Source of the DNA: Psilocybe cubensis
Lineage: Eukaryota
Assembly: GCA_017499595.2 (NCBI GenBank)
Contig: CM039002.1
Span: forward strand, 1-64,000
Length of the DNA stretch: 64,000 nt
Direction of reading: 5' to 3'
Shown here: piece after piece, positions 1 to 52,192 of the stretch
Numbering within the stretch: position 1 is the stretch's first letter
Layout: each line of letters opens with the position of its first letter
Notes under the pieces: generated by a model
Told to the model about the DNA's origin: nothing
What the model saw: only the letters and a program-made list of their open reading frames with translations
Database searches by the model: none
Position numbers and translations under genes: made by a program

Positions 1-172
1 CTAAACCCTAAACCCTAAACCCTAAACCCTAAACCCTAAACCCTAAACCCTAAACCCTAAACCCTAAACCCTAAACCCTAAACCCTAAACCCTAAACCCT
101 AAACCCTAAACCCTAAACCCTAAACCCTAAACCCTAAACCCTAAACCCTAAACCCTAAACCCTAAACCCTAA
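1..172 (+). repeat. Terminal telomere tract (CCCTAAA)n = (TTTAGGG)n on the other strand; left chromosome end
   Basis: Uninterrupted 7-mer repeats from base 1, with the C-rich strand 5'-terminal. Confidence 0.97.
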
Positions 173-978
173 CCGTAAGTATTCCTTGCTATAAAGTAAC
201 AAACATCTACTTACAAGCAACACATTGGATTGAATAGCTAAACCTAAACCTAAACCCTAAACCCTAAACCCTAAACCCTAACCTAACCCCAACCCTAAGC
301 TAACTAAGTCTAACCTTAGTAGGAAGTAAGGTAGGCGTGTGAACTTCCGAACGGCATGTGATTGTGAAGGGCCGGATCTAATTTAGTACATGGGAAAAGT
401 TACTTAGTACTTCGGGAAAAGTTCCTTAGTACCGTGGAAACATTTTTGATGGACCGGATCATGAACTGTCCAATTAAGATTCACAACAATCAATCATTCT
501 ATTGTTTGATTGTTAGGTAAGGACCCAGGTAAGTTATTTATACTCTAGACATGTGAATATTCCCATGTCGCGGTTACTCGGAGCCACGTAACCAGAGTAA
601 TCTATATCCATGTGATTCACATCACAGTCAATAACCCACGATGTCAAAGAACAAAAGTGTTGGATCCACTTTTGACAGGTTACCATGTGCCACATCGACC
701 CGTGACACTCTGTTCATCAGAGACCTGTCTAACTTGACAATAAACATTGACAGATTTGTGATAGTCGGTAAGATACATGACAGCTGCGCAGCATCACTTC
801 ACGCGCTGTCATCGGATGTCTAGAACATTCCTTCTAAGAATAGCCACTGAAGAGTCTATAAAGACGAAAGGGCTGGTTGTTGGGATCCCCCAACAGCCCT
901 CTGGCTACTTTCCATTTAACTCCCAGTTTAAACTAGTCGCTCGCACCTCGCTTCGCTCGGTGCTCGCTCCCCCCCTAA
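167..978 (+). mobile_element. 5'-truncated Penelope-like 3'-end unit (pLTR) A
   Basis: Near-identical to 8255-9064; starts at the internal CCCTAA seed and ends at cgctccccccctaa. Confidence 0.92.
836..911 (+). ncRNA. Type I hammerhead ribozyme, copy 1 (predicted cleavage after C901)
   Basis: Stem I tagcca/tggcta; core CTGAAGA (847-853); stem II gtct-ataa-agac; GAAA (866-869); stem III gggctg...cagccc; CUC triplet. Confidence 0.92.
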
Positions 979-1002
979 ACCCTAAACCCTAAACCCTAAA
1001 AC

Positions 1003-1440
1003 CTCTTGACATGAGAATATTCCCATGTCACGGTTACTCGGAGCCACGTAACCAGAGTATTTTATATCCATGTGATTCACATCACAGTCAATAACCCACG
1101 ATGTCAAAGAACAAAAGTGTTGGATCCACTTTTGACAGGTTACCATGTGCCACATCGACCCGTGACACTCTGTTCATCAGAGATCTGTCTAACTTGACAA
1201 TAAACATTGACAGATTTGTGATAGTCGGTAAGATACATGACAGCTGCGCAGCATCACTTCACGCGCTGTCATCGGATGTTCCAGAACATTCCTTCTAAGA
1301 ATAGCCACTGAAGAGTCTATAAAGACGAAAGGGCTGGCTGCTGATAACAATCAACAGCCCTCTGGCCTTCTTTCCATTTAACTCACAGTTTAAACAAGTC
1401 GCTCGCACCTCGCTTCGCTCGGTGCTCGCTCCCCCCCTAA
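1003..1440 (+). mobile_element. 5'-truncated pLTR unit B (variant haplotype)
   Basis: Copy of the distal part of the 3' UTR, preceded by CCCTAAA repeats (~973-1000), same 3' end as the other units. Confidence 0.9.
1297..1372 (+). ncRNA. Type I hammerhead ribozyme, copy 2 (cleavage after C1362)
   Basis: Same core; stem III apex tgat-aaca-atca; stem I gcca/tggc extended by aagaa/ttctt. Confidence 0.9.
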
Positions 1441-1504
1441 ACCCTAACCCTAAACCCTAAACCCTAAACCCTAAACCCTAAACCCTAAACCCTAAACCCT
1501 AAAC

Positions 1505-2200
1505 CCTAACCTAACCCCAACCCTAAGCTAACTAAGTCTAACCTTAGTAGGAAGTAAGGTAGGCGTGTGAACTTCCGAAAGGCATGTGATTGTGAAGGGC
1601 CGGATCTAATTTAGTACATGGGAAAAGTTACTTAGTACCTCGGGAAAAGTTCCTTAGTACCGTGGAAACATTTTTGATGGACCGGATCATGAACTGTCCA
1701 ATTAAGATTCACAACAATCAATCAATTGATTGTTAGGTAAGGACCCAGGTAAGCTATTTATACTCTTGACATGAGAATATTCCCATGTCACGGTTACTCG
1801 GAGCCACGTAACCAGAGTATTTTATATCCATGTGATTCACATCACAGTCAATAACCCACGATGTCAAAGAACAAAAGTGTTGGATCCACTTTTGACAGGT
1901 TACCATGTGCCACATCGACCCGTGACACTCTGTTCATCAGAGATCTGTCTAACTTGACAATAAACATTGACAGATTTGTGATAGTCGGTAAGATACATGA
2001 CAGCTGCGCAGCATCACTTCACGCGCTGTCATCGGATGTTCCAGAACATTCCTTCTAAGAATAGCCACTGAAGAGTCTATAAAGACGAAAGGGCTGGCTG
2101 CTGATAACAATCAACAGCCCTCTGGCCTTCTTTCCATTTAACTCACAGTTTAAACAAGTCGCTCGCACCTCGCTTCGCTCGGTGCTCGCTCCCCCCCTAA
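1505..2200 (+). mobile_element. 5'-truncated pLTR unit C (variant haplotype)
   Basis: Follows an interstitial (CCCTAAA)n tract at ~1435-1510; matches ~8358-9064 with diagnostic variants. Confidence 0.9.
2057..2132 (+). ncRNA. Type I hammerhead ribozyme, copy 3 (cleavage after C2122)
   Basis: Same sequence as copy 2. Confidence 0.9.
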
Positions 2201-2277
2201 ACCCTAAACCCTAAACCCTAACCCTAAACCCTAAACCCTAAACCCTAAACCCTAAACCCTAAACCCTAAACCCTAAA

Positions 2278-2974
2278 CCCTAACCTAACCCCAACCCTAA
2301 GCTAACTAAGTCTAACCTTAGTAGGAAGTAAGGTAGGCGTGTGAACTTCCGAAAGGCATGTGATTGTGAAGGGCCGGATCTAATTTAGTACATGGGAAAA
2401 GTTACTTAGTACCTCGGGAAAAGTTCCTTAGTACCGTGGAAACATTTTTGATGGACCGGATCATGAACTGTCCAATTAAGATTCACAACAATCAATCAAT
2501 TGATTGTTAGGTAAGGACCCAGGTAAGCTATTTATACTCTTGACATGAGAATATTCCCATGTCACGGTTACTCGGAGCCACGTAACCAGAGTATTTTATA
2601 TCCATGTGATTCACATCACAGTCAATAACCCACGATGTCAAAGAACAAAAATGTTGGATCCACTTTTGACAGGTTACCATGTGCCACATCGACCCGTGAC
2701 ACTCTGTTCATCAGAGATCTGTCTAACTTGACAATAAACATTGACAGATTTGTGATAGTCGGTAAGATACATGACAGCTGCGCAGCATCACTTCACGCGC
2801 TGTCATCGGATGTTCCAGAACATTCCTTCTAAGAATAGCCACTGAAGAGTCTATAAAGACGAAAGGGCTGGCTGCTGATAACAATCAACAGCCCTCTGGC
2901 CTTCTTTCCATTTAACTCACAGTTTAAACAAGTCGCTCGCACCTCGCTTCGCTCGGTGCTCGCTCCCCCCCTAA
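2278..2974 (+). mobile_element. 5'-truncated pLTR unit D (variant haplotype)
   Basis: Follows interstitial telomeric repeats at ~2195-2283; nearly identical to unit C. Confidence 0.9.
2831..2906 (+). ncRNA. Type I hammerhead ribozyme, copy 4 (cleavage after C2896)
   Basis: Same sequence as copy 2. Confidence 0.9.
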
Positions 2975-3570
2975 ACCCTAAACCCTAAACCCTAAACCCT
3001 AAACCCTAAACCCTAACCTAACCCCAACCCTAAGCTAACTAAGTCTAACCTTAGTAGGAAGTAAGGTAGGCGTGTGAACTTCCGAACGGCATGTGATTGT
3101 GAAGGGCCGGATCTAATTTAGTACATGGGAAAAGTTACTTAGTACTTCGGGAAAAGTTCCTTAGTACCGTGGAAACATTTTTGATGGACCGGATCATGAA
3201 CTGTCCAATTAAGATTCACAACAATCAATCATTCTATTATTTGATTGTTAGGTAAGGACCCAGGTAAGCTATTTATACTCTAGACATGTGAATATTCCCA
3301 TGTCGCGGTTACTCGGAGCCACGTAACCAGAGTAATCTATATCCATGTGATTCACATCACAGTCAATAACCCACGATGTCAAAGAACAAAAGTGTTGGAT
3401 CCACTTTTGACAGGTTACCATGTGCCACATCGACCCGTGACACTCTGTTCATCAGAGACCTGTCTAACTTGACAATAAACATTGACAGATTTGTGATAGT
3501 CGGTAAGATACATGACAGCTGCGCAGCATCACTTCACGCGCTGTCATCGGATGTCTAGAACATTCCTTCT

Positions 3571-4577
3571 AAAGAATAGCCACTGAAGAGTCTATAAAGA
3601 CGAAAGGGCTGGTTGTTGGGATCCCCCAACAGCCCTCAAGTACTCGTCCTCTCCCAAACTCCTGCCGCTTGTGCCTTCCCAACTCATCCGGGAGCCCTTT
3701 CGTCACTGATCTTGCCCTTGACTCGGGGACGTTTCATCGACATGTTGGCTGCCTCACGGCAAGCGGGGCCCTTTTTCTTTCACTCGCTCACGCCTTCTAT
3801 GTTGGGTTACGGAGGTCATACAAACTCGTTTTAGTCTAGCTGCGGGGATATCCAGCTATGATGACTTTGTAATTCGAGGGCGCGCAGTTCTTCAATGGGT
3901 ATGGACATCAGGTGAGAGTACACTGGGGGTTGTCAGGACCAGCTCTGCTGGATACGCTCCTGGCAAGTCGGTTGCAGCCGACGACACTACCGAATTGCTG
4001 GGACGTCCTAAAGCTTGTGGGTACCGCCGACCGCTGGAAACAGCCTAGGCACCGGTGGCGACCGGGTATGGTAACAATCCCCAAGATTCAGCGAAAGCTG
4101 GAATGGATAATCAGCAGCGAATCCGTAACGGTCACGCCGACGGAAGCGTTCAACGACTAGGTGGTAGTGGGGTCTTCGGATCTTAAGATATAGTCTTGGG
4201 AGTGGGGAAACCCACATCTGGTATCTAAACCGCGCCTCGCTGCTTACGAGGACGGCCCGAAGTCCAGAACCGCTTAAAACGCGGGTGACCCGGCCTCCCC
4301 TTAGTAAAGGGAGTTAACACAAGGATGGACAAATAGTTCGTCGCCGGAAATGAACCTGTGGCTGTAATGGCTGATGTGGCGCCCCTTGGTAAAGGGCTTA
4401 AAGGGTATTAGCCTGCCATGTCCAATGGCATGAGAGTGTCCCTTGGTAAAGGACTTAATAGGCAATAGCCTGCTCTTTTGTCATGAGCGGTATGTAGTGA
4501 TCGTTTGCCTGTACGGTAGCGCCCATTGCTTGCACTGGTCCACGCCCGTAAAAAATCACGAGCCGCTGGCCTTCTTT
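3571..4577 (+). ncRNA. Split hammerhead ribozyme, copy 5 (3571-3636 joined to 4566-4577)
   Basis: 5' part ends ...aacagcccT at 3636; 3' part Ctggccttcttt resumes at 4566; the join equals 8918-8995. Confidence 0.9.
3637..4565 (+). ncRNA. Group I self-splicing intron, subgroup IC1-like, 929 nt, no homing endonuclease
   Basis: P aattgctggga (3993-4003); Q aatcagcagc (4109-4118); R gttcaacgactag (4148-4160); S aagatatagtc (4185-4195); P3 cactacc/ggtagtg (3985-3991/4163-4169); P7 GACTA/TAGTC; P5abc with an A-rich bulge; P8 gggtc-ttcg-gatct; P9 gtggg-gaaa-cccac; P1 with U3636.G3926; terminal G4565. Confidence 0.92.
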
Positions 4578-4679
4578 CTATTTCAAACTCACAGTTTAAA
4601 CTAGTCGCTCGCACCTCGCTTCGCTCGGTGCTCGCTCCCCCCCTAAACCCAACGACTTTGCTATCACCCATCAGTTACC

Positions 4680-5838
4680 ATGTCATCCCAATACTCTGCT
4701 GCATTCTCTCGTGCCATGTCCCCTACCCTGGACGCACTCACCCAGGCCGTCGTCAACAACACTGTCTTCGGCGTCAACGATGAAGCAGGCCGCCACAACG
4801 CTCTTATCGACGAGCTGGCCACTGTAGTCATCAAAAAAATAGCTGAGTGCCGCTCCGTTGACCAAGTCATAGACTGCGTCTTTTTTGACTATCGTGCTGC
4901 CCTCAGGGAGTTTCTCCTCAACCTCGCATCGTGGTGCGACAAGAGGGAAACAGTCAAGGCTAGCCTCGAGCGCCTTGAATCTGCCGTTAGCGCAGGCAAC
5001 ACGCCCAATCGCCTTAAGGTGAAGGCACCCGAGTTCCAACTTACGAAGGAATTCGCGGATGCCGGGTCAGCGGAGGCTCTTCGAGTCTCCACTACGTTCT
5101 CTTCCGCTCGTGATGCCTTCCAAAAGGCAATTAACGACGGCGCCGTTCAGGCGAAAAAGGACGAGCTGGCTTTTTGGGATGATAAATGCGCGCTCAACTC
5201 TTGCTACGAAGCTGCTGCCCTCATCGTTAAGGCAACTTACGATGATCGCAAATCCAGCTACAAGCTCCCTGTTTTCTCTACAGACAACAAGGGAGTTCGA
5301 CGTATAGCAGAGTGGGTAGTGTCTCCGCAAAAGAAAGCCGAATGCAGTGCGCTGCAAACTATACTGCCGGCGATCTTTTCTCATATCAAACAGATTGTCA
5401 ACATGCGCCACCGCGCCTTGGCAATTAAGATTGAGAAAAAGCGGACGACTGCGGCAACAGCCGATGTCGAGATGGCCGATGCGACCAAACCAGGTCCATC
5501 GATTCAATCCCTTATTGATAAGGGCTTGAATGCACGTCTCAAAAAGCTCAACCTTGGATCTGTGGGCAAGAAGGCAAGTTTTCGTAACCCTTCACCCATA
5601 ATTCTGGACACTAATTATTACTCTAATTACCCAGACTTTGTCTGGCCAGAATTCGTCCAAGGCTCCTCAACCTCAGGCCAGGAAAGCTGGCCCTTCGAAA
5701 CCCAAGTCGTCGTCGACGCCTTCGCAGAGGAAGCCTCAAACCAAGGCTTCCAACAAGGTCGACAACAAGAAGAAAGGGAAGGGGAGAGCTCCCGTCAAGA
5801 ACAACGATCCAAAGGGAAAGGGAAAGGCAAGAGCCTAG
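4680..5838 (+). CDS. Predicted spliced ORF1 (join 4680-5573, 5635-5838; 365 aa) with a Lys-rich basic C-terminus
   Basis: AAG|GCAAGT donor at 5574, ctaat branch-like sites, CCCAG acceptor at 5634; splicing links codon 298 in frame to the basic ORF 5638-5838. Confidence 0.7.
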
Positions 5839-8213
5839 ACGCGCGGTCTACTGTAGCATCATTTACGTCGGTGAGACCCGCCTTCCCCAACTCTATTCCT
5901 GACGATATACTCACCATGACTAAAACAGACGCAGTTTCTTTTGTACACCTCAATACCCCGATTTCATTCTTATTGGCTGGCCAGTATAGATCTAGTGTAC
6001 ACTGTAGTCCTGGTGTTTCGGTCCCTGTTGATGTAGCAAATGATTTATCTCTTGGACTCAATTATATGTTTTTTACACTGCCTTCTAAAAGTCTGATCAT
6101 GCAAGCATGGAATGATTTTCAACGAAGAATAAGATGGCGTATCTATTTTTTGTTTAAAGAAGGCATGAATAAACCTTTCGATCCAGACTATGGAGTAAGC
6201 TCTAAAAAGAAAGAGAAACCTCCAATGTTACCGCAATTTATGGAACTTGGCCTTTCAATGGGACGTCGGTACGTTATTAAAACGATCGCAAGTATCCCGG
6301 AAGAAGCCCTTAAAGAGATGCGAAAGCACGCGTTCTCTCCTAAAAGGGACAAGATCCAAAAGTTTCTTTTCGATAACAACTATGTTATTACGATGACAGA
6401 TAAGAATCTTGGCCTCGCGGTGTCTGAACGCGACTGGATATTAAGGAATGAGCTCAATCTTCTTGAAGATGAACGCAACTACGAAGAGTTAGAATTCGAA
6501 GTTGCGCAAGAAGTTATGAAGAGCAAAATGATTCAGATGCAAACTCTCGCACGTACCGTCGAAGATGAACATCTGTTTCTATTTGAACTTGGGTTGTCTC
6601 GATTCTTTCTATCGAATGTACCGGAAGACGGATCATCGTTCAAGTATCCTCAATTTCATGGTATACCTAAAATCCACAAGAAACCTACTGGATTTAGGCC
6701 CATAATTCCGTGTCACTCTGTAGTATTTAATCCTGCAGCCAAGTTTGTATCAAAAGAGCTTAAGCCGATTATTAAATCGACTCCTTCAATCATTCACGGA
6801 ACGAAGGATCTCTTTACGAGATTAAGCCAATTGCGTATAGACCCCAAACGACAATGGTATTTTGTCACCGGGGATGTAGTTGCTTTCTATCCCAATATTC
6901 CGTTGGACTTGTGCATCGAAATCGTTTGTAATATGTACGAGGAATGGTTACTCAACGCTTCGGAAGAAAACACTGCATTAGCCCATATTAATCCAAATTC
7001 GTTAGAGAATAACTTGGTTAAATTGGGCATCTTTAAACGTGCTATCGAGATTGGCAATACGCAATTGATAACACAACATGGGTCTAGATATTTTAGACAA
7101 AAAAATGGCCTCGCAATGGGCGTCGCGGATTCTCCGGACCTTGCTAACCTCTTTGGAGCCCATTTTGAAATAAAGTCAAAAATCTTAGACCACCCAAACG
7201 TGGCCTTCTATGGAAGGTACATCGACGATTGTTTCGCAATTGTTTACGCCGAGTCCGAAGCACTTGCACTTAATCTTATTAAAGAAACAATAAAGTTCGA
7301 TGGTTGTGTTATCGAATGGGCTGTTTCCTCGTCGGGATGTCAATTTCTCGATGCTTTCATATTCAAGGAGTCTGGAAAACTTCATTGGAAGCCATTTGTC
7401 AAGACAGGAAACAACCGAGAACGAGTTCCATGGGTATCACATCATCCTTTGGACGTCAAACGTGGCGTCTACATTGGAGAGTTATCCAGGTTAGCCGTGC
7501 TATGTAGTACCAAGGAAATCTACATCGGAGCAATTAGAGACCTTAACGCTCTCTATTTGATGCGCGGTTATCCCGAAAACCTAGTCATGTCTTGGTGTAA
7601 GAAGAATATACAAGAACGTTGGGAAAAGCGATTCGCTTTACGAGTCGCAGAGCACGACGAATCCATTCTTGTACTTAAAACCAGATTTGATCAGGTATGG
7701 AATTGGTTTTCAGCTGCTGAACTTGGAAAGACTGTTACCGAGTACTGGTCGGCATGGTATGAACATGCCGAGAAAGGTCTGTATAGTGCAGACTCGTCCA
7801 GACCCCTTATCAAACCAGATCCAAATTACGTTCACGACCTCGATGATGTTCGCCCGGAGCTGTTCACACAGATCCTCGTGGACGGAGAAACTGAGTTCGT
7901 ACCGGATTTGAGGAAGATAGGACTACTCGGAAGTCGTTGGATAGTATCGCGAAAGCGCAATACTAATCTTTTCGACCTTGCAAATGTGTGGAAGAAAACA
8001 GTCTTTCGTAAACTGGATGAAAACATCGCTGAAAAAGGTGGTGTTGTTCCCGAAACTCAAAACGTTAATGAAACTTATCATTCTGCTCTAGTTGAAGCTG
8101 CTGAACAGATAAGTATCGAAAGTGATAACGAGATAATACTTCATAGACGTTCAATCTCACAAGAGAGGGAACATCCAGAATTCGGCAGAATATCCAAATC
8201 TTACAACCGATGA
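4680..8213 (+). CDS. ORF1-reverse transcriptase fusion of a Penelope-like element (1177 aa, unspliced form)
   Basis: Motifs TDKNLG, FHGIPKIHK, FRPII, GDVVAFYPNI, QKNGLAMGVADSPDLANLF, YGRYIDDCF, QFLD, SHHP; no C-terminal GIY-YIG; helical N-terminal part. Confidence 0.93.
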   Translation: MSSQYSAAFSRAMSPTLDALTQAVVNNTVFGVNDEAGRHNALIDELATVVIKKIAECRSVDQVIDCVFFDYRAALREFLLNLASWCDKRETVKASLERLESAVSAGNTPNRLKVKAPEFQLTKEFADAGSAEALRVSTTFSSARDAFQKAINDGAVQAKKDELAFWDDKCALNSCYEAAALIVKATYDDRKSSYKLPVFSTDNKGVRRIAEWVVSPQKKAECSALQTILPAIFSHIKQIVNMRHRALAIKIEKKRTTAATADVEMADATKPGPSIQSLIDKGLNARLKKLNLGSVGKKASFRNPSPIILDTNYYSNYPDFVWPEFVQGSSTSGQESWPFETQVVVDAFAEEASNQGFQQGRQQEEREGESSRQEQRSKGKGKGKSLDARSTVASFTSVRPAFPNSIPDDILTMTKTDAVSFVHLNTPISFLLAGQYRSSVHCSPGVSVPVDVANDLSLGLNYMFFTLPSKSLIMQAWNDFQRRIRWRIYFLFKEGMNKPFDPDYGVSSKKKEKPPMLPQFMELGLSMGRRYVIKTIASIPEEALKEMRKHAFSPKRDKIQKFLFDNNYVITMTDKNLGLAVSERDWILRNELNLLEDERNYEELEFEVAQEVMKSKMIQMQTLARTVEDEHLFLFELGLSRFFLSNVPEDGSSFKYPQFHGIPKIHKKPTGFRPIIPCHSVVFNPAAKFVSKELKPIIKSTPSIIHGTKDLFTRLSQLRIDPKRQWYFVTGDVVAFYPNIPLDLCIEIVCNMYEEWLLNASEENTALAHINPNSLENNLVKLGIFKRAIEIGNTQLITQHGSRYFRQKNGLAMGVADSPDLANLFGAHFEIKSKILDHPNVAFYGRYIDDCFAIVYAESEALALNLIKETIKFDGCVIEWAVSSSGCQFLDAFIFKESGKLHWKPFVKTGNNRERVPWVSHHPLDVKRGVYIGELSRLAVLCSTKEIYIGAIRDLNALYLMRGYPENLVMSWCKKNIQERWEKRFALRVAEHDESILVLKTRFDQVWNWFSAAELGKTVTEYWSAWYEHAEKGLYSADSSRPLIKPDPNYVHDLDDVRPELFTQILVDGETEFVPDLRKIGLLGSRWIVSRKRNTNLFDLANVWKKTVFRKLDENIAEKGGVVPETQNVNETYHSALVEAAEQISIESDNEIILHRRSISQEREHPEFGRISKSYNR

Positions 8214-8326
8214 AAAGAATACTAGCGCGTAAGGCGTAAAGCATTAGAAAAAAACCCTAACCGTAAGTATTCCTTGCTATAAAGAAACAAACATCTACTT
8301 ACAAGCAACACTTTGGATTAAATAGC

Positions 8327-8400
8327 TAAACCTAAACCCTAAACCCTAAACCCTAAACCCTAACCTAACCCCAACCCTAAGCTAACTAAGTCTAACCTTA
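8327..8400 (+). repeat. Telomeric and degenerate telomeric repeats inside the element's 3' UTR
   Basis: ccctaaa x3-4 followed by ccctaacctaaccccaaccctaagctaactaagtctaacc; units C, D and the 5' pLTR begin at this tract. Confidence 0.85.
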
Positions 8401-8917
8401 GTAGGAAGTAAGGTAGGCGTGTGAACTTCCGAACGGCATGTGATTGTGAAGGGCCGGATCTAATTTAGTACATGGGAAAAGTTACTTAGTACTTCGGGAA
8501 AAGTTCCTTAGTACCGTGGAAACATTTTTGATGGACCGGATCATGAACTGTCCAATTAAGATTCACAACAATCAATCATTCTATTATTTGATTGTTAGGT
8601 AAGGACCCAGGTAAGCTATTTATACTCTAGACATGTGAATATTCCCATGTCGCGGTTACTCGGAGCCACGTAACCAGAGTAATCTATATCCATGTGATTC
8701 ACATCACAGTCAATAACCCACGATGTCAAAGAACAAAAGTGTTGGATCCACTTTTGACAGGTTACCATGTGCCACATCGACCCGTGACACTCTGTTCATC
8801 AGAGACCTGTCTAACTTGACAATAAACATTGACAGATTTGTGATAGTCGGTAAGATACATGACAGCTGCGCAGCATCACTTCACGCGCTGTCATCGGATG
8901 TCTAGAACATTCCTTCT

Positions 8918-8995
8918 AAAGAATAGCCACTGAAGAGTCTATAAAGACGAAAGGGCTGGTTGTTGGGATCCCCCAACAGCCCTCTGGCCTTCTTT
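8918..8995 (+). ncRNA. Type I hammerhead ribozyme, copy 6, in the 3' pLTR (cleavage after C8984)
   Basis: gcca CTGAAGA gtct ataa agac GAAA gggctg...cagccc TC tggc. Confidence 0.92.
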
Positions 8996-9073
8996 CTATT
9001 TCAAACTCACAGTTTAAACTAGTCGCTCGCACCTCGCTTCGCTCGGTGCTCGCTCCCCCCCTAAAACCCTAAG

Positions 9074-12000
9074 CCCCACGCGGTAGGCGCCTTTCCTGAT
9101 TGCATTTGTTGTTTGTGTTTCGTGTTCAAAATCTTCTTTTGTTGTCGTTTAACAGCCCTGTATGGTAAAGTAGTCAAAAGACAAACAAAGAAGAGCGCAA
9201 CAAAGAAGCGGGGTGCGTATTACTGACATACTGTGCACCGGGCAGCGGATGATGCATACATGAAGGGTAGGCGGCAGAAGAAGAGGGGGAGGACGATGTT
9301 CTGAAGAATTTTGAGTCGAGCAGGAGCTTGGGAGGATTGTATGAACGGGGAGTTTAGCATTGAAAACTATAACAAGGCAAAAGCAGCATGGGTAGTAAGC
9401 GATAGAGTCGAGATATGATGTGGTGAGCATAAAAAGCATGGACATTGGAGTACAGGCATACCACAAAACCTGACGGAGGGTGATGAGAAGAGCTTCACAT
9501 CAACCTCTGGAAGCGGCACGGTTGCCTCCACACGTCTGACAACTCTATCGCTCTTCCTGACCCCGCGCGGGACCAGGTAACAAACCGTAAATCACCTTTA
9601 TGAACGGAAGGCGTGGGTTGTAAACCACAGAATAAGAGGAGGGGGATGTGCTGGGGATCGAGGAGTCCAGCGGGAGATTGTTCGAACATCAAAATGAGAC
9701 TTGACGAATGAAATGAGGCAGAACGCTTAGGGAATCTGGGAAGGAGTCAGGAAAAGAAGCGGAATCGTGCATGTCAAGGAGAAGATGGGAGACATACCAC
9801 AGATATGGATAGAAAACAGCCCAACCTAGACCTCTGTTGTGGAACACCCCATTCTCACGCTCAAATCTGTCGGGAAAGTGATGGGATGTACCCGGTATTG
9901 CGCAATTGAGCCTTTTGACGAGAACAAGGAGGGAGGAACTCACGGTGGTCCTATCTAAAAAGGGAAGGGGTTGGAGAGGATGCGAGTGTTCGAGACGTCG
10001 TAGAAGATGGGTGAAAATCGAATACGTGTAGGTCGCATGCTTGAGGATGGGATCGATCGCTTATTTGAGTGAAAGGGAGGTGGTATTATAAGTATGCTAC
10101 GACGTACCATGAGGGTTCAAACGCATCAGCAACCACCCTCAATGCATACATGTTCTAGAGGTACAATGTGCCCAGGAGGGTGACAGGATCCGGCGGTTGG
10201 TTTATGTTTGTGTGCTATGCGGATGGGGAGTTGGTGTGGTGTGTGTGAAAGAACCTTTAAATGTAAGATCATAGCTGTCTGAATTAGGTGAAGGAGGCCC
10301 TGGAAGGTGGGTTAAATCTCGCGTCGCCCAAAGCCAACGCCATCGTGTTTGTCGCACAGTGTGAGCCGAAGACGTTCAATCTCCGCTCGAAACTCGATCA
10401 CGTCAGCGCTATTTTCTCCCACGCCGCTGTATAAACCTTCAGCTTCAGCTACAACCACCAAGTTTGCAAGCGCGATCATGTATCACTTTCATCTGTTCAA
10501 TATGCATAATTCACTTGGACTAATCATTGTGGCTCTTGTCCATTTGATAATTCGGTGCGAAGTTCTTGTCTTTTATGTCCCAACTTGATCGATTCTCTCC
10601 TCAAACTCCCACCTATCGAATCTATCTTAACACTCGTCCACTAAATACCAGGCAATGTTGTGGGTTTTATAGATACTTTCGCTAAATTGCGTGCACATAT
10701 TGACTGTGAGATTCCAGAAACACTGCGTAGTTCCAACACAAATAATGAAACATGGCGCTAGGTGCGTCATTTAACATCTACATATGAGTTCATCTAATTA
10801 CCCTGTCCGTCTAAAATCATTCACTCATCACTCTTCAGTGAAGCCAAGGATGTAGAACATCGGCTGAACGAGTTGTTAGAATAGGCCCACAAGTCCGTAT
10901 CTCGAGAGGTGTTTTCATAGGTTGAGGAGTTACAGTCAACTTTAGCACATAGTTATAGCTACATCTGTGATCTAACCGTGGTTTTTCTAACCCGGTTCCC
11001 CCTCTTCATCGTTAATTCATTTGAATTTACATATAGTATGGATGTTGGCGGTCGTTTCTCACAAAATGAGTATCTCTTAATTCATTACAAGGATTTTTGG
11101 TTTTGAGTGCGGGACAGCGTATCATCGTATCTGCACTTGATATCTACAACGGTGACGGAGTGTACGGTTTCAGGTGATAGATTCGGCGGGGCGGTGGGAA
11201 AGAATTACTGTGCATATTGTGTGTGGTTAATCAGTTATAATCTACCCGGTGTAGTACTACACGTCGCGGAGACAGTGTGCCGAATACTTGATACCTGCGC
11301 AACGTATCCAGGAAGGAGAAAATGATGTTTGACTAATAAGGCGTAACCACAAAACACAGTAAATTTCTCTACCTTGAGGTCGTTGTATGGTGTTCTGGTT
11401 CTGTCACATCCAACGTAATGGGAAAGAGAGCTTCAAAGCGTAGTGATGGAATATCAAAAGATACCGCTAGCACGGGTTCCCACAGCCAAAAGCCAGCGCA
11501 GGGTAATGACTGTGTTCAATGTTTTTTTTTCTCATGTTATAAAGATCGAGCCATCCACTGTTCATCTCAAAGATTCCCACTACATTCCGCTCCCAAATGT
11601 TGCATCTACACTTGTATTTCTCTTCAAATTGATGTCCTCGATGTCGCTCATGTTACATGCTACACAGAGAGAGAACAGAAAAACTCAACGGGGGAGTGCA
11701 GTAACCTCGCCCATACAACCTTGCCGTGTCCTCCATCCGGAGAGATAGGTAAGCAAAACATTACATTCAAGCATAGAGAACATCACCAGCAAGAAAGCCC
11801 CGGGTTCACGCCCGTTGAGCAGATATCCGAATGGATAACTGACTCGTCAGGAGATGCTTGAAGGTATATTTTGAGTTCCTGTCTCTCGAAGTGTTTGGAA
11901 CTTATGTAAATGGTTGCAGGTCGGGCCTCAAAACGAGCAAGGAAATGAAAGTATCGTGCGGGGGCGACATGTTGAACCCCATCGGATGCCCTGCCCATTT

Positions 12001-12160
12001 CTAGGTCAACGGAAAGCAAGATCATTACCTTTTATAGGACACACAAGTTCGCATCCACCTCACAGGCTGAACCAGCAATTCTATTTCAGCTAGACGTGCC
12101 TGTTGGCACGTCAAGACAGCAAACGGGCCTGCCTCATAGCAGAAACACCCCGTACAGGGT
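9074..12160. repeat. Subtelomeric segmental repeat; inverted paralog at ~58680-62293, partial direct paralog from 22481
   Basis: Visible colinear similarity, e.g. 10300-10460 vs the reverse complement of 60470-60640, and 11100-11640 vs 59350-59870. Confidence 0.8.
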
Positions 12161-12790
12161 CATCCAGACCCAGCACAATGCAGTGCCACACCACAGCAAT
12201 GAGGGTTTAGTATTCATGCGAGGTGCGTACATTGTTTATTGCAATTTCACCTTGCTCAATCCTCCTTTTGGAGAGGCAGATAGTCATGATAAAGTGTCTG
12301 AGAACCAAGAACACGAAGACTCAGCCTCCGCATTCCCACATGTTGAGCCAACATTCACGAGGAGTGCCGGATCACTAGATGATACTCAAAGGTATATTTT
12401 GATTCTCCGTCTCTCGCAATAGAGGGGACTGATGCAAAGGTTGTAGATCCGAGCCTCGAGACACACAAGGAAACGGACGGTACTTTTGTTTCGAAAAATC
12501 ACATACCGAGTGTTTTGATTTGAGATTTGTACATCATGTCAGCTCAAGACGGAAAGGAGCTCCCCGCCCGTACAACAGGGTTGGCAATAGAGGAGAAAAA
12601 TGGTGGAACACATAGTCCGCATAGATCTCAATGAAAATGTAGTGTATAGAGGAATGAGGCCCGACGTAGGCCCACCGAAGAAAATGAAAAGTAAGCACTC
12701 CAATTGTGGATATGCAGACAGTCAGCTGATTCTCGCACCTTCTTTCGCCCCTAATCTTTGATACCTGTAGTTCGTAGGCCGTAGTACAAA
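11590..12790 (+). pseudogene. Orphan subtelomeric gene family copy (degenerate)
   Basis: PVGTSRQ, PHVEPT and VRIDLNENVVYRGMRPD-like motifs shared with the copy at 23820-25145; internal deletion; boundaries approximate. Confidence 0.55.
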
Positions 12791-14737
12791 GCGGTTGGGG
12801 AGCGGGAGACTAACGTCAGATGGAAGGAGTAGTCAAATATTTTATCTATCTTATCACTGCATCTTATCAATTTGTATGAGTTTGGTCATGGCGTAATCGG
12901 CAAGCTTCAATGAGTGTGAGATTAAAGTAATCTGTGGGTGACAGTAACATTGGTAAGGTCGTGAATTGTTGATACAGTCTGATGTAGAACTTGGCTGATA
13001 AAAGGAAGTTCTGATTGATATTTAAAATAATAAAGAACATGTTTTACAATGCTGCTTCAACCCAATTCTATTCTAAAACTGTATGTATATAAATGGCATA
13101 ACCTTCTTCATACATCTTCAGCTAGGCGGTTTGGAGCTGCTCAACTGTAGTCCTGGTTGTCAGTTCTGGGAAATTTCAGGTGGTAGAATTAGTCTCTTGT
13201 ATATATACACCATACCTAAGTAACTCACTTTTCAGACTACGGGGTCAGTGCAATCTTATCGCGGTATTACTTTCCATGGACGGTCGATCGATGCCCTTCC
13301 TATATAAAGTCGATTGATGGACTGAGGAGCATCTATCAGAAGCGGGAAATTTTTATTGGGGTCAATCCAGACACGCACCACCGCTTCTGACTGCTCCATC
13401 TTCGCCTGAAATGCTAATACAGTCGACTTTAAGGTGCACAGAGCAGTGGTGGTGTCTCTCTTGAATGTGTCAAAATCGTGGCAAGACTCTTGAAACCAGG
13501 CTGGTGCCATCTCTAAAGATAATTGGTATGGCAATCAGGACTTTCTGAGCAGACAATTTGTTACCTCCAGGGACAGTCTCCTGCAGAGACTCCACATAAT
13601 TTGCAGCAGACATCAAAGCAGATTCCGTAGCTGGAACTAAATGTTGTTAAACTTGTGTAAGGGATGCTACCATAGTTGCGGGTTATGAGACACCTACATC
13701 GTCAAGCGCTGGCAATATCCCCTTATTCAAAGTGATTGATTCTTTCAATACAACGAAATTGGACAAGGGCGTGGAAGTTTGAACGGCTAGATGCTGAATG
13801 TGAGATAAAAAGGGCAAGGGGGAAGTGGACTCGCCGTTGCATGATGAGCGTCTATCATGTGAAGGTAATCTTGTTGTGGCAAGGAAAGTCCTGGTCTGGT
13901 TTGCCAAACCCTTGAACGTCAAACGGCGAACGGCGAGTCATGAACCTGGCGGTAACGTGGCGCTTTGCCATAGTAAACACGGACACATTGTGTGTTGTAT
14001 CCTTCTCCAGTAAATATTTGTGCACTGGCTTAGCGTCCCCGACCTTCGCTTTGTTTCCTAATTATTGCATTCCTGTGATTGTAAAGAACCGCAATATTTG
14101 AAACATTTAGCTCTGAATCTCGTCTTTAAGTGTGATTTAAATTGAGTGCATCGCTCTGACTTTTAACGCTTATTAGGAAAAACCACCCACCAAACAACTA
14201 CTCACACTACAGCAACATAGGTTTGACACAGCAGGTATCATGTTACCGGGTGAGCGGTACGGATAGGTACAAAAAGTGAATGACCGTACTAAGGGCATTG
14301 GTTTGGTGGGAAAAAAGTACTATGCATATTGTGTGTTGTTTACCCTTTGTGATCTACCCGGTGTAGTTGACACATCGCGGCCACCGCGTGTTCCACACTC
14401 GATTCCTTAGGCTGGAGGTAGAAATTGCTGTTCAAACGAGGGATAATCACAGAAGATCGTTAATTTCTTTACCTTGAGGTTAATGTCTGGAGTCCATTTC
14501 TCGTCCCATCGAGCGCAATGGAAGAGAGTACTAAGAAGCGTGGTGATCAAACACCAAAAGGTGGCGTTAGCATGCTTTCCCACAGCCAAAAGCCAGCGCT
14601 GAGGGATGACTTGAAGAAGGCGTGTTCAGGGTTTTTTTCTCATGTTATAAAGATCTGACCATCCACTGTTCTCTCCCAGTTTCTCACCACCTTGACCATC
14701 CCCAATCTTCGCTTCAGAGCCCCGCACTGTTTTCCCA

Positions 14738-16140
14738 ATGTCCCAGTCCAACATCTTCAATTTGTGGAACATTATGCTCAGTCAGAGTGAATCTGAAGCA
14801 ACCAGTACCACTGGTGAGACCATTATTGTCAATACGAGTGCATTGGGCTAACACTGATCGTGTGGGGATGAATAGATAGCTGCCGTGAACATATAAACGC
14901 ATTCCATGGTTTCGAAGGAGGCGTCAATGAACTGTTACTCCCCTCAGTTTTCCAAGAATATTACATGCCTGGTACGGATTGCTATCCCTTTCCTCACAGC
15001 CTGTGTTCACAAAATTCTGCAGAACAAGATATTCAGGTGTTTAACTCAATTCCCCAAACCCATGGCGGTAACGACGATTTGCAGGAAGGACTACTGAGTC
15101 TCGGTAATGCCGCCATGGATGTTGTTCACCATTCCGCGGCACAAGGTGTACCATCTGCGGTTCCGTACACGTTGCAGGATTTAGCGCAAATATGGGATTC
15201 TAATGTTTCATCTCTAAATGACTCTCTGGTCGATCCCGTGGAAGCCCATTCAAGCGCAGCATTCTATGCCAGGCCGGCTGCTATGCCTATGCGCAGCTCA
15301 TCCGTTGAGGTTCCCAATCCAGTGTACACAGATTACGCACACCATGGATATGGAGAACCATCAAGATCACATTCCGGCTCTATGTCAAGGACTTCATTGG
15401 CTCAGATGCCAATTGATACTTTTCTAATGGAGCACCAGACCAAAGTTGGAGCATTTCCTGTATCAATTATTCCTTCCCCACCAGACCTACCTGTTGGTCC
15501 ATCAAGACAGCGGCCAAGGGGCATGTCTCATCGCATGTACACCCCGCATAGGCTCGTAGCGAAGAAACATAACACAGCATCACACCGCATAGAGTGCGCT
15601 CACAATCTGCAATTTAATCCAACCTGGCCCATCCCTCCATCTGGAGAGATGACCAATCAAAATACTGTGTCCGAGCAAGGGCAATTCCGAGGAGGCGAAG
15701 GCTCCGGGGTTATTCCCGTAGAGCAGACATCCGAAAGGATATCTGGATCAAGAAGTGCTCGAAGGTATATCTGATTTTTCATCTCTCGAGATTTATAGGA
15801 CTGATGCCAAATGTTGTAGATCCGAGCCTCAAGAAGACCAAGGAAATGGAAAGTGAGTATGGTTCAAATTCACGCACCGAGTCTGGATTTCACATGTTTT
15901 TGCATAATGTCAGAGTGGCACCCAAAAGAGGGCCTCGGGCAGGAAACCGGAGCGCCAAACGAGGGGGAAAGCCCTTCGTACGTCAAGTACGCATAGACCG
16001 AGTCACTGGAAAGCCGGTGTACCAAGGCATGAGACCCGACACAAAACAACAAACAGAAAAGTAAGCTCTCCTATCACAGGTCTACAAATAATGAACTGAC
16101 TCGCACACCTTTTCTCCTGACAGTACCAGTGATTCCTGTG
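14738..16140 (+). CDS. Orphan multi-exon subtelomeric family protein (S/P-rich, C-terminal VRIDxxGxxVYQGMRPD)
   Basis: ORFs 14965-15774 and 15804-16064 with GT-AG introns at positions shared among paralogs; boundaries approximate. Confidence 0.55.
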
Positions 16141-19100
16141 ATTTGTAGGGCATGGGATATAGCGGTTGGGGAGCGCGGGACTACCGTTGGATAGAATAAT
16201 CATCAGAGAGAAAATATTTATCTTATCGTAGCATCTTTTCAGTTTGTATCGATTTGGTCACGGCATTGTCGGCAAGCTGGATTGAGTGTGGGAAAAAAGC
16301 ATCGCAGTGCGCACTCTGACTTAGTGAATCCTTTAAGACTCAATGTCGAACCTTCATAGCTTTAAGTTAAATGTGACAATAATATGTGTATCAATATCTT
16401 GAAATTGTACTGTCGCTCAGATTCCAAGGCTGATTTTGTGCGTCATTTAACTCAGAATGCAATTCAAGAAGATAAATGATATTAGGTATTTTCATGCCAA
16501 AATAACTGTGTACATCTCCATGTTTCATCGAGTAAATACCAATAACAGGAAGATAAAACCTTCTACTTCTTATTATCGAGCTCAGCATGGTATTAAACCT
16601 CAACAAATCGAAAGCTATCCGTCAGATTCAACCACCTCTCATTAAGATAACACACCGTCAGAACATAGCGATATCCGATTAGACACCCAGGAAAGCAAAA
16701 TGACACTCAAGAGTTCAGATCACTCACGTTTTTGTAGTCCAAGCTGTAGGGGTATTTTCTTTCTCTCCATCCTCTTTCATTTTCGTTGAGTACATCATGA
16801 ATGTTGACCTCTACCTGAATCGCAGAAAACGGATGAGGATATTGCTGCGTTAGCCTACCCAATCACTTTAGATTGTGGTGCGATGTTGCTGTTCAATATG
16901 CGGTGTAACTGTCGATCTTGTTTTCCCATACTTTTAGTTTTGAGGGAAGAAGAGATGGGATGCGAATGGGCTCAGCATCATCTGCTATCTCTCAACGAGG
17001 TTCGTAGACACTGTAAAATCAACGCCGGAAAGATGATTCATCCCAATATAAAATTAACTAAATATCTCTACGAAGAAAGATGCAAACGACTTACACTCAA
17101 CCAAGAACGAACGGATCGTGTCTGACCACAATATTTTTGCCTGTTCAGCAAACATACATCCGAGTTCCTCGGCTTTTGTGCCAGTATTGGTGGACTGGAA
17201 GAGCTTGCTACAGTGCTAGCGTCGATGTGTCGCTAGAATAGTGGAGGGATTGAGGGATCGACTGTAGCTATAGACAGATAATGGATGGTGATTGAACGAT
17301 GTGGATATCGAGGTCGACGTCGAGGACGGGGTAGTTGGGGTGTGTGGAACAAAACACTCATAGTAGAGTGTCTTATCTTCATGCCACGGTATAGTAGGCC
17401 TCTGAATCCCGTATGAGGGGTGATTATACAAAACATCGAGAGTTGGGTATTGCAATTGAAGATTTACGCGGTGATCAAATATATGAATTTCAGGAAACAA
17501 ACGTCTCTTTATTTCTAAGTCAGAGAAAGAAATCATTTTACTGAAGTCTGTAACAACCCTCCCGATTGTCTCTCTTTCTTTGGCATATTAACATAATCAA
17601 AATGGCTCACCAAATGACAATTTTCCACAAATATCTCATTGTTCTCCGTGTTCCAGGTATTGTATGCATCCAAGTCCCTGAAACTACGGGCTATGAACAG
17701 GGGATGTGAGCATTTCAAGTCATATGTGCGCATACATGACCACCTTGATTAGAAGCAGGCGAGCGTAACAGGTCCGGTAAATACCGTCGCTCAAGGGACG
17801 TGGCGAAGTATACAGATATCTAGTCGACTCGCAAGTAGCCCTATTGAGTTTATATTGACACGGTGTGCATGGTACCATAATCACTCACTCATGATCAACC
17901 TCCCACACGCGCGCCAATTGAAACGGCCTTTGTCAAGCCCATCATCTAACCCTCCTTGCCCTATTCCACGTTTCGATGAGAGTTTAACGATATATGCATA
18001 ATCTGCGCTCGCTGCCCCCAAATTTTGTATTCGTCAGCCTCAAGGGCGATTCCTACGCCGCATACAATTGATCGGTGTTAGCTAGGGAGTCTCACTTCAC
18101 ACGTTGTGCGCTGCTTTACCTGCTAGTATTTGTATTCGCGTTCATGTTCGTGACCTGTATGTCATATAAATCAAGTGCACGCACAAAGACGGTAAGGACA
18201 AAGAATAAACGGATTGCATACGACTGCTAAACGGCTTAACTGTAAACCGACAACGCATAACTGATGGTGATGCCGCAGTAGATGAGGGAGGAGTGCTGGG
18301 CAGCAATGAATCGAGCGGAAGGGAAGTGTTGGGAATATGGTGTCGAGCGGAGGCTTGGTAGGGAACTGTGTAAGCGTCACAGTGGGCCTTGATAAATACA
18401 GTGAGGCGGAGGTTTTAGGAAATTGGTGGAGGGGTCGAAAGAAGACGCGGAGGTAGGGATAGCAGGGACTGGAAGAGGGGACATACCAGACGAATCGAAG
18501 GAGAAAAACCCAACCACAACATCCGGAAGTGACATAACTCTCTCCGCACGTAAACAAATTCTATCCATCTCCACAGCCCCCCGCGTTCCCCACTCACAAG
18601 CTGTCAAATATCCCCATGCTCACGGTCCAATCCGTCTAGAAAGTAGTCAAATGGGCGGCGCATCGTGTTGGCGAGTCTTCTGTAGAGCACTCGGGGGCGG
18701 TGCGTGTGGTGATCTTCCATGTCATTGACAAAAGAGTTCGGAGCGGAAGTGAGTGTGAAAGATGCCAGGAAAGGTTTATGGATAGTGATTAAGCGGAGGT
18801 AGATGAATTGAATGGGTGTGCCTTGTGCATGCTCTGGTACGAGGACGTGATCGATGGCTAGTAGGATTAAGATGACTGTGGTGACGGTACGACGCGTTAT
18901 CACAATATACCATTGCAGCGAACCTCAAATCACTTCGATGTATACATGTCTTAAAGGGATGAGGTGGGCGAATGGATGACAGGAGCCGACGGGAGGTTTT
19001 TGTTTGGGTAATCAATATTGCATACCGTGGAATATCCATGCGAAAGGATGATTCCCCTGTATAATGCATATATTCGAAGGAATTGACCTCGCCAGCGAAC

Positions 19101-22960: not shown

Positions 22961-23819
22961 TGCGGAGATCACTCACAAGTTTTCTAATATCCTTATGAAC
23001 AAGAGGTACGGATTGTAAACGAGGTTGCGAGAGGAGGAGGAAGGGCTAGGGTAGAGGAGTCGGGCGGGAGATTGTGCGAACCTTGATAACTACAATGTGT
23101 AAGAAAGCTGTCTGTTTGCGCCACAGGGTTTGAGGGATGCGTGGGTTGAACTGTCAAAGGTCCCATTTAGGTTGGAAAGATTGCAGGGCCGAAAAAAACT
23201 TGTAAGTCATATAGTATTGTCGAATCTTCATAGCGTTTGAGTAGAGCTTCAAGCATGGTTACAGGATCTGTTGATTCATTACAATGATTTTTGGCTTTGA
23301 GTGGGGAACTGCGTGTAATCACGATAGCTACAAGAAAGGGACGGAACGTACAGCTTTCAGGTGATCGGTACGGTGGGAAAAACTACTGTGTGTGTGGTTC
23401 ATCCGTTATAATCTACCCGGTGTAGTACACATCGCGGCCACCGCGTGCTTAATACGTGATGCCTGCGCAACCTATCCGGGAGGTAGAAAATGCTGTTCAA
23501 CCAAGGGATAATCGCAGAACACAGTTAATTTCTTTACCTTGAGGTCATTGCTCTGCATCCTCACTCTTGTCCCATCCAATGAAATGAGAGAAAAGACTAG
23601 GAGGCGTGGTGATCAAACATCAAAAGTTACCGCTAGCACAGTTTCCCACAGGAAAAAGCCAGCGCCGCTGAGGAATGATTCGCATAAGGCGTGTTCAACG
23701 GTTTTTTTCTCATGTTATAAAGATCAAACCATCCATTGTTCACCTCGAAAATTCCCACTACGATCCGCTCCCAAATTTTGCGCATAAAACTTTTATTTCT
23801 CTTCAAGTTGAAGCCCTCG

Positions 23820-40440: not shown

Positions 40441-40521
40441 CGGATAAACAAAGGATCTTTTATCCCGCTGAATACTTAGGCCGATAGTTTTGCAGTCATT
40501 TCTTTGAACATGGGACTGGTA

Positions 40522-41610: not shown

Positions 41611-42049
41611 CTGGTAAGCAGAATCACACGCTCACCGATATGTCATCTGGAAATCAACCTCAAAAATTGTCATAGCGAAATTACGAATGGAAGTGCATTT
41701 TTTACGAAGGTGCGAGTGCAGAGAGCAGTGGCTCGAAGAATCGAAATGCAGTTTAACCATTGCCAGGGATGAGGCAGCTCTCTCTTCACATCGGACCTTC
41801 TACTCATCTCTCCGTGTCTATATTCATGAAGCAGTGTTGTTTGGGACATATGTAAATTACGAGGTCTGGTATCTCTCTATCTCAATGCATAGGAACCATA
41901 TTCATTTTTTCTCATACTACCAGGTGAAGCTTGCCGATTGCGCCGCGACCAAATCGATACAAATTAAATAGATCCACCGATAAGATAAATACATTTTCCC
42001 ATCCGTCCAACGTTGAAACGTTGTTCCAACATTTCCCAACCGGTTTTTA

Positions 42050-49799: not shown

Positions 49800-50032
49800 A
49801 CTATGCCCTACAAGGTACAAATAACTGGGAGGGAATAAGGTGCGCAAATTAGTTTGTTTGTTGTTGACACCTATGATTATAGTGCTTACTTTTCTATTCA
49901 TTAATCAAGTCGGGTCTTATTCCTGGATAGACCACCCTGCCATAGGTGTCTATACGAAATTTTTGGACAGCGAAGTTCCCCCCTCGCTTAGCGCCCCCTT
50001 TCTGCACGCGCAGCTTTCTTTTACCGCTGACA
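49800..50032 (-). pseudogene. 3' fragment of an orphan-family gene cut by a TIR element
   Basis: FRIDTYGRVVYPGIRPD exon; similarity stops at the element boundary. Confidence 0.6.
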
Positions 50033-51131: not shown

Positions 51132-51159
51132 AATCATGGGGAAATGCTATCTCAAGTGA

Positions 51160-52083: not shown

Positions 52084-52192
52084 AAAATTTTTGCTTTGTT
52101 TTCATTTACTCGCAAAACATTTCAACCAACATTTTCATTCTATTTATCGCGTTGCTAATTCTATTTGCTCGTGTGGATATTTTGTACACGTA

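Follow-up and report, generated by a model that had tools for sequence, protein, structure and literature searches.

The first 64,000 nucleotides (nt) of contig CM039002.1 of Psilocybe cubensis (GenBank assembly GCA_017499595.2; hereafter referred to as the window) begin in a telomere, behind which lie six copies of a ~740-nt unit ("pLTR") that represents the 3' end of a retroelement encoding a reverse transcriptase (RT). Every copy contains the core of a hammerhead ribozyme, and in one of them this ribozyme is interrupted by an additional 929 nt. The locus therefore raises the questions of what the inserted segment is, how it came to lie within a self-cleaving motif, and what it does to that motif. 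The explanation that best fits the data is that positions 3637-4565 are a group I intron without an open reading frame (ORF), probably still competent, residing in a telomere-attached, endonuclease-lacking Penelope-like element (PLE; Coprina-like) of an agaric, and that it belongs to an intron lineage riding such elements just after the hammerhead and not in ribosomal DNA (rDNA). We assign this reading a probability of about 0.68.

The left (3516-3636) and right (4566-4680) flanks of the insert rejoin to 8863-9100 with nothing lost or duplicated (alignment A1), and the flanks match the intron-less unit at 8326-9068 with 742 matches, one mismatch, and one gap in total. The insert separates ...CAGCCCU from CUGGCC... 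without a target duplication. Its boundary is ambiguous by 1 nt (C), i.e. 3637-4565 or 3638-4566; in the former placement the 5' exon ends in U and the insert in G (G4565), whereas in the latter the insert ends in C. Fourteen sequencing runs contain the stretch or part of it, none of them recorded as RNA, and four DNA runs (X8, X10, X12, and X17) were compared. Raw reads of X17, a different data set under the same species label, contain the joints 3636>4566 and 4565>3637 to the nucleotide, and 191 of its reads skip exactly 3637-4565, representing intron-less units. A 574-nt contig from X10 (another organism label) crosses the 3' junction (4048-4608), X8 (a third label) contains 3720-4516 in three pieces with 0-5 differences each, and X12 contains 3708-3858 only.

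A full group I catalytic core is present in the insert. RF00028 matches 3921-4217 on the + strand with a score of 70.9 bits (cut-off 50; E 5.6e-16) over the whole model (1-253 of 253), and it is the sole family to reach its gathering score in the window (Rfam scan); Rfam offers one group I model and not one for each subclass such as IC1. The guide sequence, GAGUAC-ACU-GGGGGUUGU (3916-3933), is located directly 5' of P2, the canonical place, and GGGGGUUGU pairs with the exon sequence ACAGCCCU (3629-3636 with 3933-3926: A-U, C-G, A-U, G-U, C-G, C-G, C-G, and U3636-G3926). P1 extends into the intron through C3637-G3925 and A3638-U3924 and, beyond a small internal loop, through 3640-3645 (GUACUC) with 3921-3916 (GAGUAC), giving 10 + 6 bp (~16 bp) with an energy of -30.0 kcal/mol (RNAduplex); this value is reached by 4 of 500 shuffles and, among 1161 other 27-mers within 3 kb, by none. 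Unconstrained folding of 3560-3975 also forms the P1 helix. A long insert between the P5 strands is visible, as are hairpins that could be P2 and P2.1. An earlier note on this DNA had described the insert in one of the six copies with its 1-nt ambiguity, the complete core, and the guide placing U3636 opposite G3926, and these claims were borne out by the alignment and X17 reads, by RF00028, and by RNAduplex and the pair listing, respectively; the group I splice-site rule (U at the exon end, G at the insert end) that it invoked applies to placement 3637-4565 but not to 3638-4566.

No homing endonuclease was detected in the insert: the ORFs within or overlapping it are at most 87 amino acids (aa) long, and the four that were scanned (at least 60 aa) yielded only Pfam noise (Leu_Phe_trans, E 0.18). 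No rRNA match was found in 1-9300 at E values up to 10. The tail that follows P9 contains, at 4290-4460, three similar hairpins with GUAAA-type loops (e.g. CCCCUUAGUAAAGGGAG and CCCUUGGUAAAGGGC), one of which is shared, at 92% over 39 nt, with L068 and L079, two of the related metagenomic loci described below.

Its core and the stem covariation across relatives show the interrupted motif to be a genuine type I hammerhead with all core nucleotides present. The core CTGAAGAGTCTATAAAGACGAAA occurs six times on the + strand (847, 1308, 2068, 2842, 3583, and 8930), with 0 occurrences expected (100 shuffles); five copies run on as ...CAGCCCTCTGGC, and the copy at 3583 instead as ...CAGCCCTCAAGT (family D6). 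The intact copies comprise, in order, the 5' strand of stem I (AAAGAAUAGCCA), the core CUGAAGA, stem II (GUC-UAUAAA-GAC), GAAA, a long helix III (GGGCUG...CAGCCC), U, C, the cleavage site, and the 3' strand of stem I (UGGCCUUCUUU), which is the type I layout (CUGANGA ... GAAA ... UH; stem I open, stems II and III closed) in all five. All 20 aligned relatives retain CUGA.GAG and GAAA without change. The covariation set consisted of 57 distinct core matches from the window and 80 related loci, 39 of which form eight or more closing pairs across stems I and III, compared with 59 of 2850 shuffles, and the stems vary in sequence among loci (GCCA/UGGC, GGGAC/GUCCC, GAGUU/AACUC, and ACCAAGGA/UCCUUGGU). 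The hammerhead call leans on this covariation because the minimum-free-energy fold of the intact region gave another structure and did not return the hammerhead. The Rfam hammerhead cut-offs were not reached: the best match, to RF03152 (RAGATH-1 hammerhead), scored 29.1 bits (cut-off 56.3) and was confined to the five intact copies, the split copy being without a match, RF00163 did not match the window at E values up to 10, and no hammerhead family reached its cut-off among 78 scanned relative loci. Fungal PLE hammerheads with a large helix III are known, and one of them cleaves in vitro, according to the available sections of PMC4209133.

The intron is positioned between U16.1 and C17 of this hammerhead, and the unit concerned immediately precedes the full-length RT gene. 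The first C of the intron serves as C17 in the precursor, the 3' strand of stem I changes from UGGC... to AAGU..., and a hammerhead can no longer be read from the split copy. There is also competition between P1 and helix III for ACAGCCCU; on its own, the helix III hairpin has an energy of -17.4 kcal/mol. Because intron sequence has taken the place of the 3' strand of stem I, and because P1 and helix III share ACAGCCCU, it can soundly be inferred that the hammerhead of the window copy should be unable to fold before intron removal and that its self-cleavage should depend on prior splicing; the joined exons would recreate the sequence of the intact copies exactly. Since related introns sit +4, +13, and +48 nt past the scissile bond, this gating of the hammerhead is probably a by-product within an intron lineage and not a demonstrated design.

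The relatives on which this view rests were obtained by aligning 18 RT homologues, which led to 80 metagenomic loci with 31-66% RT identity; the Rfam scan covered 78 of these, and L065 and L078 were covered by nhmmer and regex only. Group I cores were identified in four of the 80 loci (L071, L068, L052, and L064; Table 1), all of which precede the RT gene on its own strand, and intron fragments in two more, namely L050 (the 3' part of an L064-type intron) and L079 (the 3' part of an L068-type intron). In the three intron loci that have a hammerhead on the contig, the cores lie between the hammerhead and the RT gene. A hammerhead precedes the RT match in 28 loci, with a gap of at most 291 nt in 25 and of 1415-2162 nt in three, which are the intron bearers. 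The window intron matches L071 twice by nhmmer (E 3.5e-48 and 2.4e-20), the first match spanning intron positions 160-790, well past the core; it also matches L064 and L052, and its P9-tail hairpin matches L068 and L079. Compensatory changes keep 34 of 69 consensus pairs paired across five cores, which indicates selection on the intron fold across lineages. None of the other 60 scanned loci reached the group I cut-off, no further locus among the 80 was detected with a profile of the six cores, and L079 gave no core at E values up to 1, containing the 3' part of the intron only. The second core of L071 is located downstream of the repeat tail and upstream of the RT-homologous coding region, and this second intron may be part of the leader or may split the beginning of the ORF.

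Relative to the scissile bond, the mapped insertion sites are -1 (window), +4 (L052), +13 (L071), and +48 (L064); all the mapped introns begin with C, finish with CG, and follow a 5' exon whose last nucleotide is U. The 3' repeat of L071 (...GUU/GUGCCAGCUUCGU-CGCAAC...) represents the empty site of this locus, and its 5' repeat contains 846 nt between ...CUUCGU and CGCAAC.... In L052 (CAGUU/AACU-(1071 nt)-CCGUUUCG), the first C of the intron keeps the fifth pair of a 5-bp stem I, and the junction is a U-G wobble. In L064 (and L050), the intron follows ...CUCGCUUCGCU, and empty tails are found in L064 (1-130), L054, and L075. The repeats of L052 and L064 are 85.6% homologous and their introns 68-76%, yet the sites differ, which means that the intron has moved within one element family. 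L050 and L064 are 88.4% identical over 3567 nt, from inside the intron through the ORF, and intron and element have therefore diverged together. L079 (1052-1663) matches L068 (352-1000) only from inside the intron onward, the upstream DNA being unrelated; this is compatible with what a 5'-truncated complementary DNA (cDNA) of unspliced RNA would look like, and also with a rearrangement. These comparisons bear on several further claims of the earlier note. The split does remove the 3' strand of stem I, as its reasoning requires; its hammerhead was supported as a type I motif by stem covariation, but not by the Rfam hammerhead models; and the interruption of the cleavage triplet (U16.1/C17) applies to the window copy and does not extend to the relatives as a conserved feature. 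The "5' pLTR" of that note is really a 5'-truncated copy of the element 3' end adjoining the full-length copy. The finding is larger than the note had proposed, i.e. a recurrent intron lineage in telomeric retroelements, outside rDNA.

The copy numbers estimated from X17 (Table 1), which assume 1632 million letters over a ~46-Mb genome, as large as the available contig sets, and thus ~35-fold coverage, argue for the same location: ~3 copies would be far too few for an rDNA or a mitochondrial or other organellar resident. The X17 intron is polymorphic (3778 T>C in 61 of 88 reads, 4332 A>C in 55 of 112, and 4535 C>T in 28 of 99), and its copies have therefore diverged. Nine X17 reads with seven different starts join 4565 to 3637 head to tail (going back 929 nt), indicating that another strain has either introns in tandem or DNA copied from a full-length intron circle.

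The six units at the window start each end in ...GCTCGCTCCCCCC, followed by telomere repeats. U6, which belongs to the full-length copy, represents the empty site of the intron, and the other five units are 5'-truncated and distally added, with telomere repeats between them. U1 aligns with 8252-9076 (811 matches, nine mismatches) and keeps ~70 nt of 3' untranslated region ahead of the internal telomere-like repeats of the element, linking the unit and the 1177-aa ORF as one element. In the intron-bearing unit U5, the hammerhead from the 5' strand of stem I through the core CUGAAGA, stem II, GAAA, and helix III up to U16.1 occupies about 3573-3636 of the left part, and the right part matches 8984-9068 at 84 positions with one mismatch. 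The 1177-aa ORF is 98-99% identical to database proteins named Psilocybe cubensis, which carry a precomputed PF00078; PF26215 and PF28514 are also precomputed for near-identical database relatives. An hmmscan of this ORF against Pfam returned no family even at E 10, a blank that is weak evidence for an obvious RT, and the RT assignment accordingly rests on the YIDD motif and the homologues. No GIY-YIG motif was seen in the ORF by eye. The telomeric site, the sense strand being the C-rich strand, the 3' end abutting reverse-complement telomere repeats, and the nearby hammerhead are those of an endonuclease-deficient PLE, and the same arrangement is given in the published description of this class, as far as the available sections of PMC8557442 go. 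The name Coprina-like is used here for its resemblance to the class description, not as a phylogenetic placement.

Other features of the telomeric surroundings were also noted. In X17, reads join the unit tail (4650) via a few telomere repeats to 3269, 3289, 3459, and 3463 inside the next unit, which shows repeated additions with variable 5' truncation in another strain. The telomere 7-mer CCCTAAA is found in the window at 1-182, 1440-1530, 2200-2300, 2960-3040, and 8326-8380, and in several metagenomic relatives, among them L053 (1-126); the tail of L071 (13626-13640) ends in CCCTAA units, unlike the CCCTAAA of the window, suggesting that the hosts of intron-bearing elements differ in their telomere repeat. 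Further along the window, diverged repeat families (62-93% identity) relate 11400-16300 to 23400-28500 and 40500-42450 to 50000-59000, representing duplicated subtelomeric segments with ORFs of 200-440 aa.

Table 1. Coordinates and properties of the intron, the retroelement units, the X17 copy-number estimates, and the group I cores of related loci
Feature	Position	Strand	Evidence or remarks
Group I intron, 929 nt, without recognisable ORF	3637-4565	+	Alignment, RF00028, reads
P1 5' strand	3629-3645	+	Last 8 nt of 5' exon and first 9 nt of intron; splice site U3636/C3637
P1 loop insertion, 270 nt	3646-3915	+	Predicted long extended arm; 3' half conserved with L071 intron (nhmmer alignment from intron position 160)
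Internal guide sequence, P1 3' strand	3916-3933	+	G3926 opposite U3636
Catalytic core P2-P9	3921-4217	+	RF00028, 70.9 bits
3' extension after P9, 348 nt	4218-4565	+	Three similar hairpins; ends ...GAGCCG, terminal G4565
Telomere repeat (CCCTAAA)n, C-rich strand	1-182	+	Repeat family D1; window start
U1, 5'-truncated copy of element 3' end	164-989	+	Intact hammerhead, core 847, cleavage after 901; then telomere repeats
Shorter 5'-truncated unit	1003-1450	+	Families D2, D5, D6; intact hammerhead, core 1308, cleavage after 1362
5'-truncated unit	1471-2211	+	Intact hammerhead, core 2068
5'-truncated unit	2245-2985	+	Intact hammerhead, core 2842
U5 left part, 5' exon of intron-bearing unit	2978-3636	+	658 matches, 0 mismatches, 1 gap to 8326-8983
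U5 right part, 3' exon	4566-4660	+	C17 (4566), stem I 3' strand (4567-4585), tail ending ...CTCCCCCCCTAAACCC
Retroelement ORF, intact, 1177 aa	4680-8213	+	RT, YIDD motif
U6, 3' unit of full-length copy	8326-9068	+	Internal telomere-like repeats, intact hammerhead (core 8930, cleavage after C8984), tail
X17, unit left of insert			Depth about 1370, about 39 copies at about 35x
X17, intron			Depth about 100, about 3 copies at about 35x
X17, ORF start			Depth about 356, about 10 copies at about 35x
L071 core 1	7469-7787		RF00028 72.8 bits, above cut-off
L071 core 2	8344-8657		RF00028 76.5 bits, above cut-off
L068 core			Cut by contig end; RF00028 39.6 bits, E 4.7e-7
L052 core			RF00028 34.2 bits, E 1.8e-5
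L064 core			RF00028 31.6 bits, E 1.2e-4

Against the background of the observed anatomy, homology, differing insertion sites, and copy number, we infer a series of RNA-level steps, i.e. splicing, reverse splicing, copying by the RT, and an order of the two ribozyme reactions. Reverse splicing, at a site that matches its guide, would have brought the intron into the element RNA, and the element RT would have copied the unspliced RNA onto chromosome ends, thereby fixing the intron in DNA. Occasional reverse splicing at neighbouring sites would yield the -1, +4, +13, and +48 positions, and forward splicing would restore the host RNA (and, in the window copy, the hammerhead) at a small cost to the element. 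A bolder proposal, which we hold tentatively and at somewhat less than even odds, is that this group I intron, reverse-spliced into element RNA and then fixed in DNA by a telomerase-like RT, represents the first natural system with the whole RNA-level mobility pathway that has long been postulated; it would be a 'split' analogue of group II introns and, in this fungus, would make hammerhead processing conditional on self-splicing.

Several observations weigh against the reading of a competent intron lineage that moves in this manner. The alternative boundary, 3638-4566, would put the insert exactly at the scissile bond of the hammerhead. The intron-bearing and intron-less units of the window are near-identical, which a single circular or single-molecule template would not give; this near-identity fits a very recent RNA-level gain or loss, and it also fits telomeric recombination, by which the intron could spread between telomeric copies without an RNA step. 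In X17, ~3 of ~39 pLTR copies carry the intron, which may be a rare passenger. Three of the four intron-bearing metagenomic loci score under the Rfam cut-off. In one of them, L064, the P7 motif is altered (GGTATAGTC) and the junction pair is A-U rather than G-U, so that its intron may be decaying. The junction duplexes of the relatives are also less distinctive: that of L071 intron 1 is no better than controls (130 of 500 shuffles as good), that of L052 is modest (30 of 500), and that of L064 is matched by 354 of 500 shuffles, the test window (927-976) having missed the likely guide at ~921-937 (by eye).

The interruption of the hammerhead could itself be adaptive, with the intron being kept because splicing-dependent self-cleavage selects transcripts that are processed into retroelement RNA. 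The facts that stem I of the split copy is impossible until the exons are joined, that ACAGCCCU is common to P1 and helix III, and that the one full-length RT gene of the window directly follows the split copy are all in keeping with such a two-ribozyme switch; however, related elements have the intron outside the core, at +4, +13, and +48, and five of the six window units and about 36 of about 39 X17 copies are intron-less. Since the split is not conserved, we consider a selected switch unlikely. The intron-like segment may instead have been captured by template switching, in which the RT, at the 5' end of a hammerhead-cleaved RNA, jumped to an excised intron RNA and then to another element RNA, leaving a cDNA that is not spliceable. 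The boundary 3638-4566 coincides exactly with the scissile bond between C17 and U1.1, and truncated copies joined via short telomere-like microhomologies are common (X17 joints 4650>3269, 3459, and 3463), but this route requires one extra untemplated C and leaves unexplained the ~16-bp guide pairing with U-G at the junction, as well as the +4, +13, and +48 sites in other loci. We therefore regard it as very unlikely, the extra C and the unexplained guide pairing being decisive. DNA-level homing was also considered and was ranked low.

Telomeric repeats recombine readily, and the intron could accordingly be a dead relic that no longer splices, that has destroyed the hammerhead of its unit, and that has spread only by recombination or duplication among these repeats. 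The degenerate P7 of L064 and the A-U pair that replaces G-U at its junction are what such decay would produce; the window intron, in contrast, passes the Rfam cut-off over the full model with P1 intact, the compensatory changes across lineages imply selection on the fold, and the flanks are virtually identical to an intron-less copy, hence a recent difference. Loss of function in the window copy is thus quite unlikely. Chromosome-end repeats are hard to assemble, and an assembly artefact or contamination might have joined an rDNA or organellar intron to the repeat. This is already contradicted by the independent raw reads and contigs that reproduce the junctions, and it agrees neither with ~3 intron copies, which is not rDNA or mitochondrial depth, nor with the same arrangement on independent metagenomic contigs, nor with the lack of an rRNA match in 1-9300 at the E limit given above; we consider it hardly conceivable. 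A group I intron lineage carried by telomeric PLEs remains the reading that we prefer.

Catalytic RNAs nested in one another, for which the order of reactions matters, are exemplified by the twin-ribozyme introns of Didymium and Naegleria and by twintrons. In twin-ribozyme introns, a small group I-like ribozyme and a homing endonuclease gene lie inside an rDNA group I intron, whereas in the window the large intron is the guest, the small self-cleaver the host, and a retroelement the carrier; the window has one group I match, no ORF with a family in the insert, and a location outside rDNA. The intron shares with the nuclear rDNA group I introns (IC1; ciliates and fungi) the RF00028 core, U-G at the 5' splice site, a terminal G, a long P5 extension, and independence of an ORF, and differs from them in residing in a telomeric retrotransposon in ~3 copies and in its 270-nt P1-loop insertion and 348-nt post-P9 tail. 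Mobile group II introns are likewise self-splicing RNAs that spread via reverse splicing and an RT, but they encode their own RT and invade DNA, whereas the group I intron of the window would borrow the element RT and invade RNA.

Reports of nuclear group I introns have so far been limited to rDNA, and the spread of such introns at the RNA level (reverse splicing, reverse transcription, and integration) has never been shown complete, according to the available sections of PMC3679873, which deals with myxomycete introns, and PMC9548176. In the literature covered, from which older key papers and supplements are absent, no description was found of a group I intron in a PLE; in the portions available of PMC8557442, PMC4209133, and PMC7761336, co-mentions of group I introns and such elements concern the GIY-YIG endonuclease or intron circles. 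The PLE hammerheads described by Cervera and De la Pena (2014; PMC4209133, in its available sections) are, like that of the window, of type I, located in the terminal repeat of a telomere-associated PLE, and provided with a large helix III; the window copy differs in being interrupted by another ribozyme and in belonging to a variant that scores under the Rfam cut-offs. The same sections cite Arkhipova et al. (2003) for the retention of spliceosomal introns by PLEs despite RNA replication, implying that unspliced RNA is copied. Those introns are spliceosomal, whereas the introns described here are group I introns, a self-splicing class.

The locus places an intron of a class known from rDNA only in an element that supplies both an RT and an integration step. 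Because intron-plus and intron-minus copies are otherwise alike and the relatives occupy four nearby sites, an old hypothesis of intron mobility would become testable in a culturable fungus. The window copy also provides an example from nature of a small ribozyme that harbours a large one, and the group I intron would be a third kind of catalytic RNA passenger for PLEs, whose hammerheads have no proven role.

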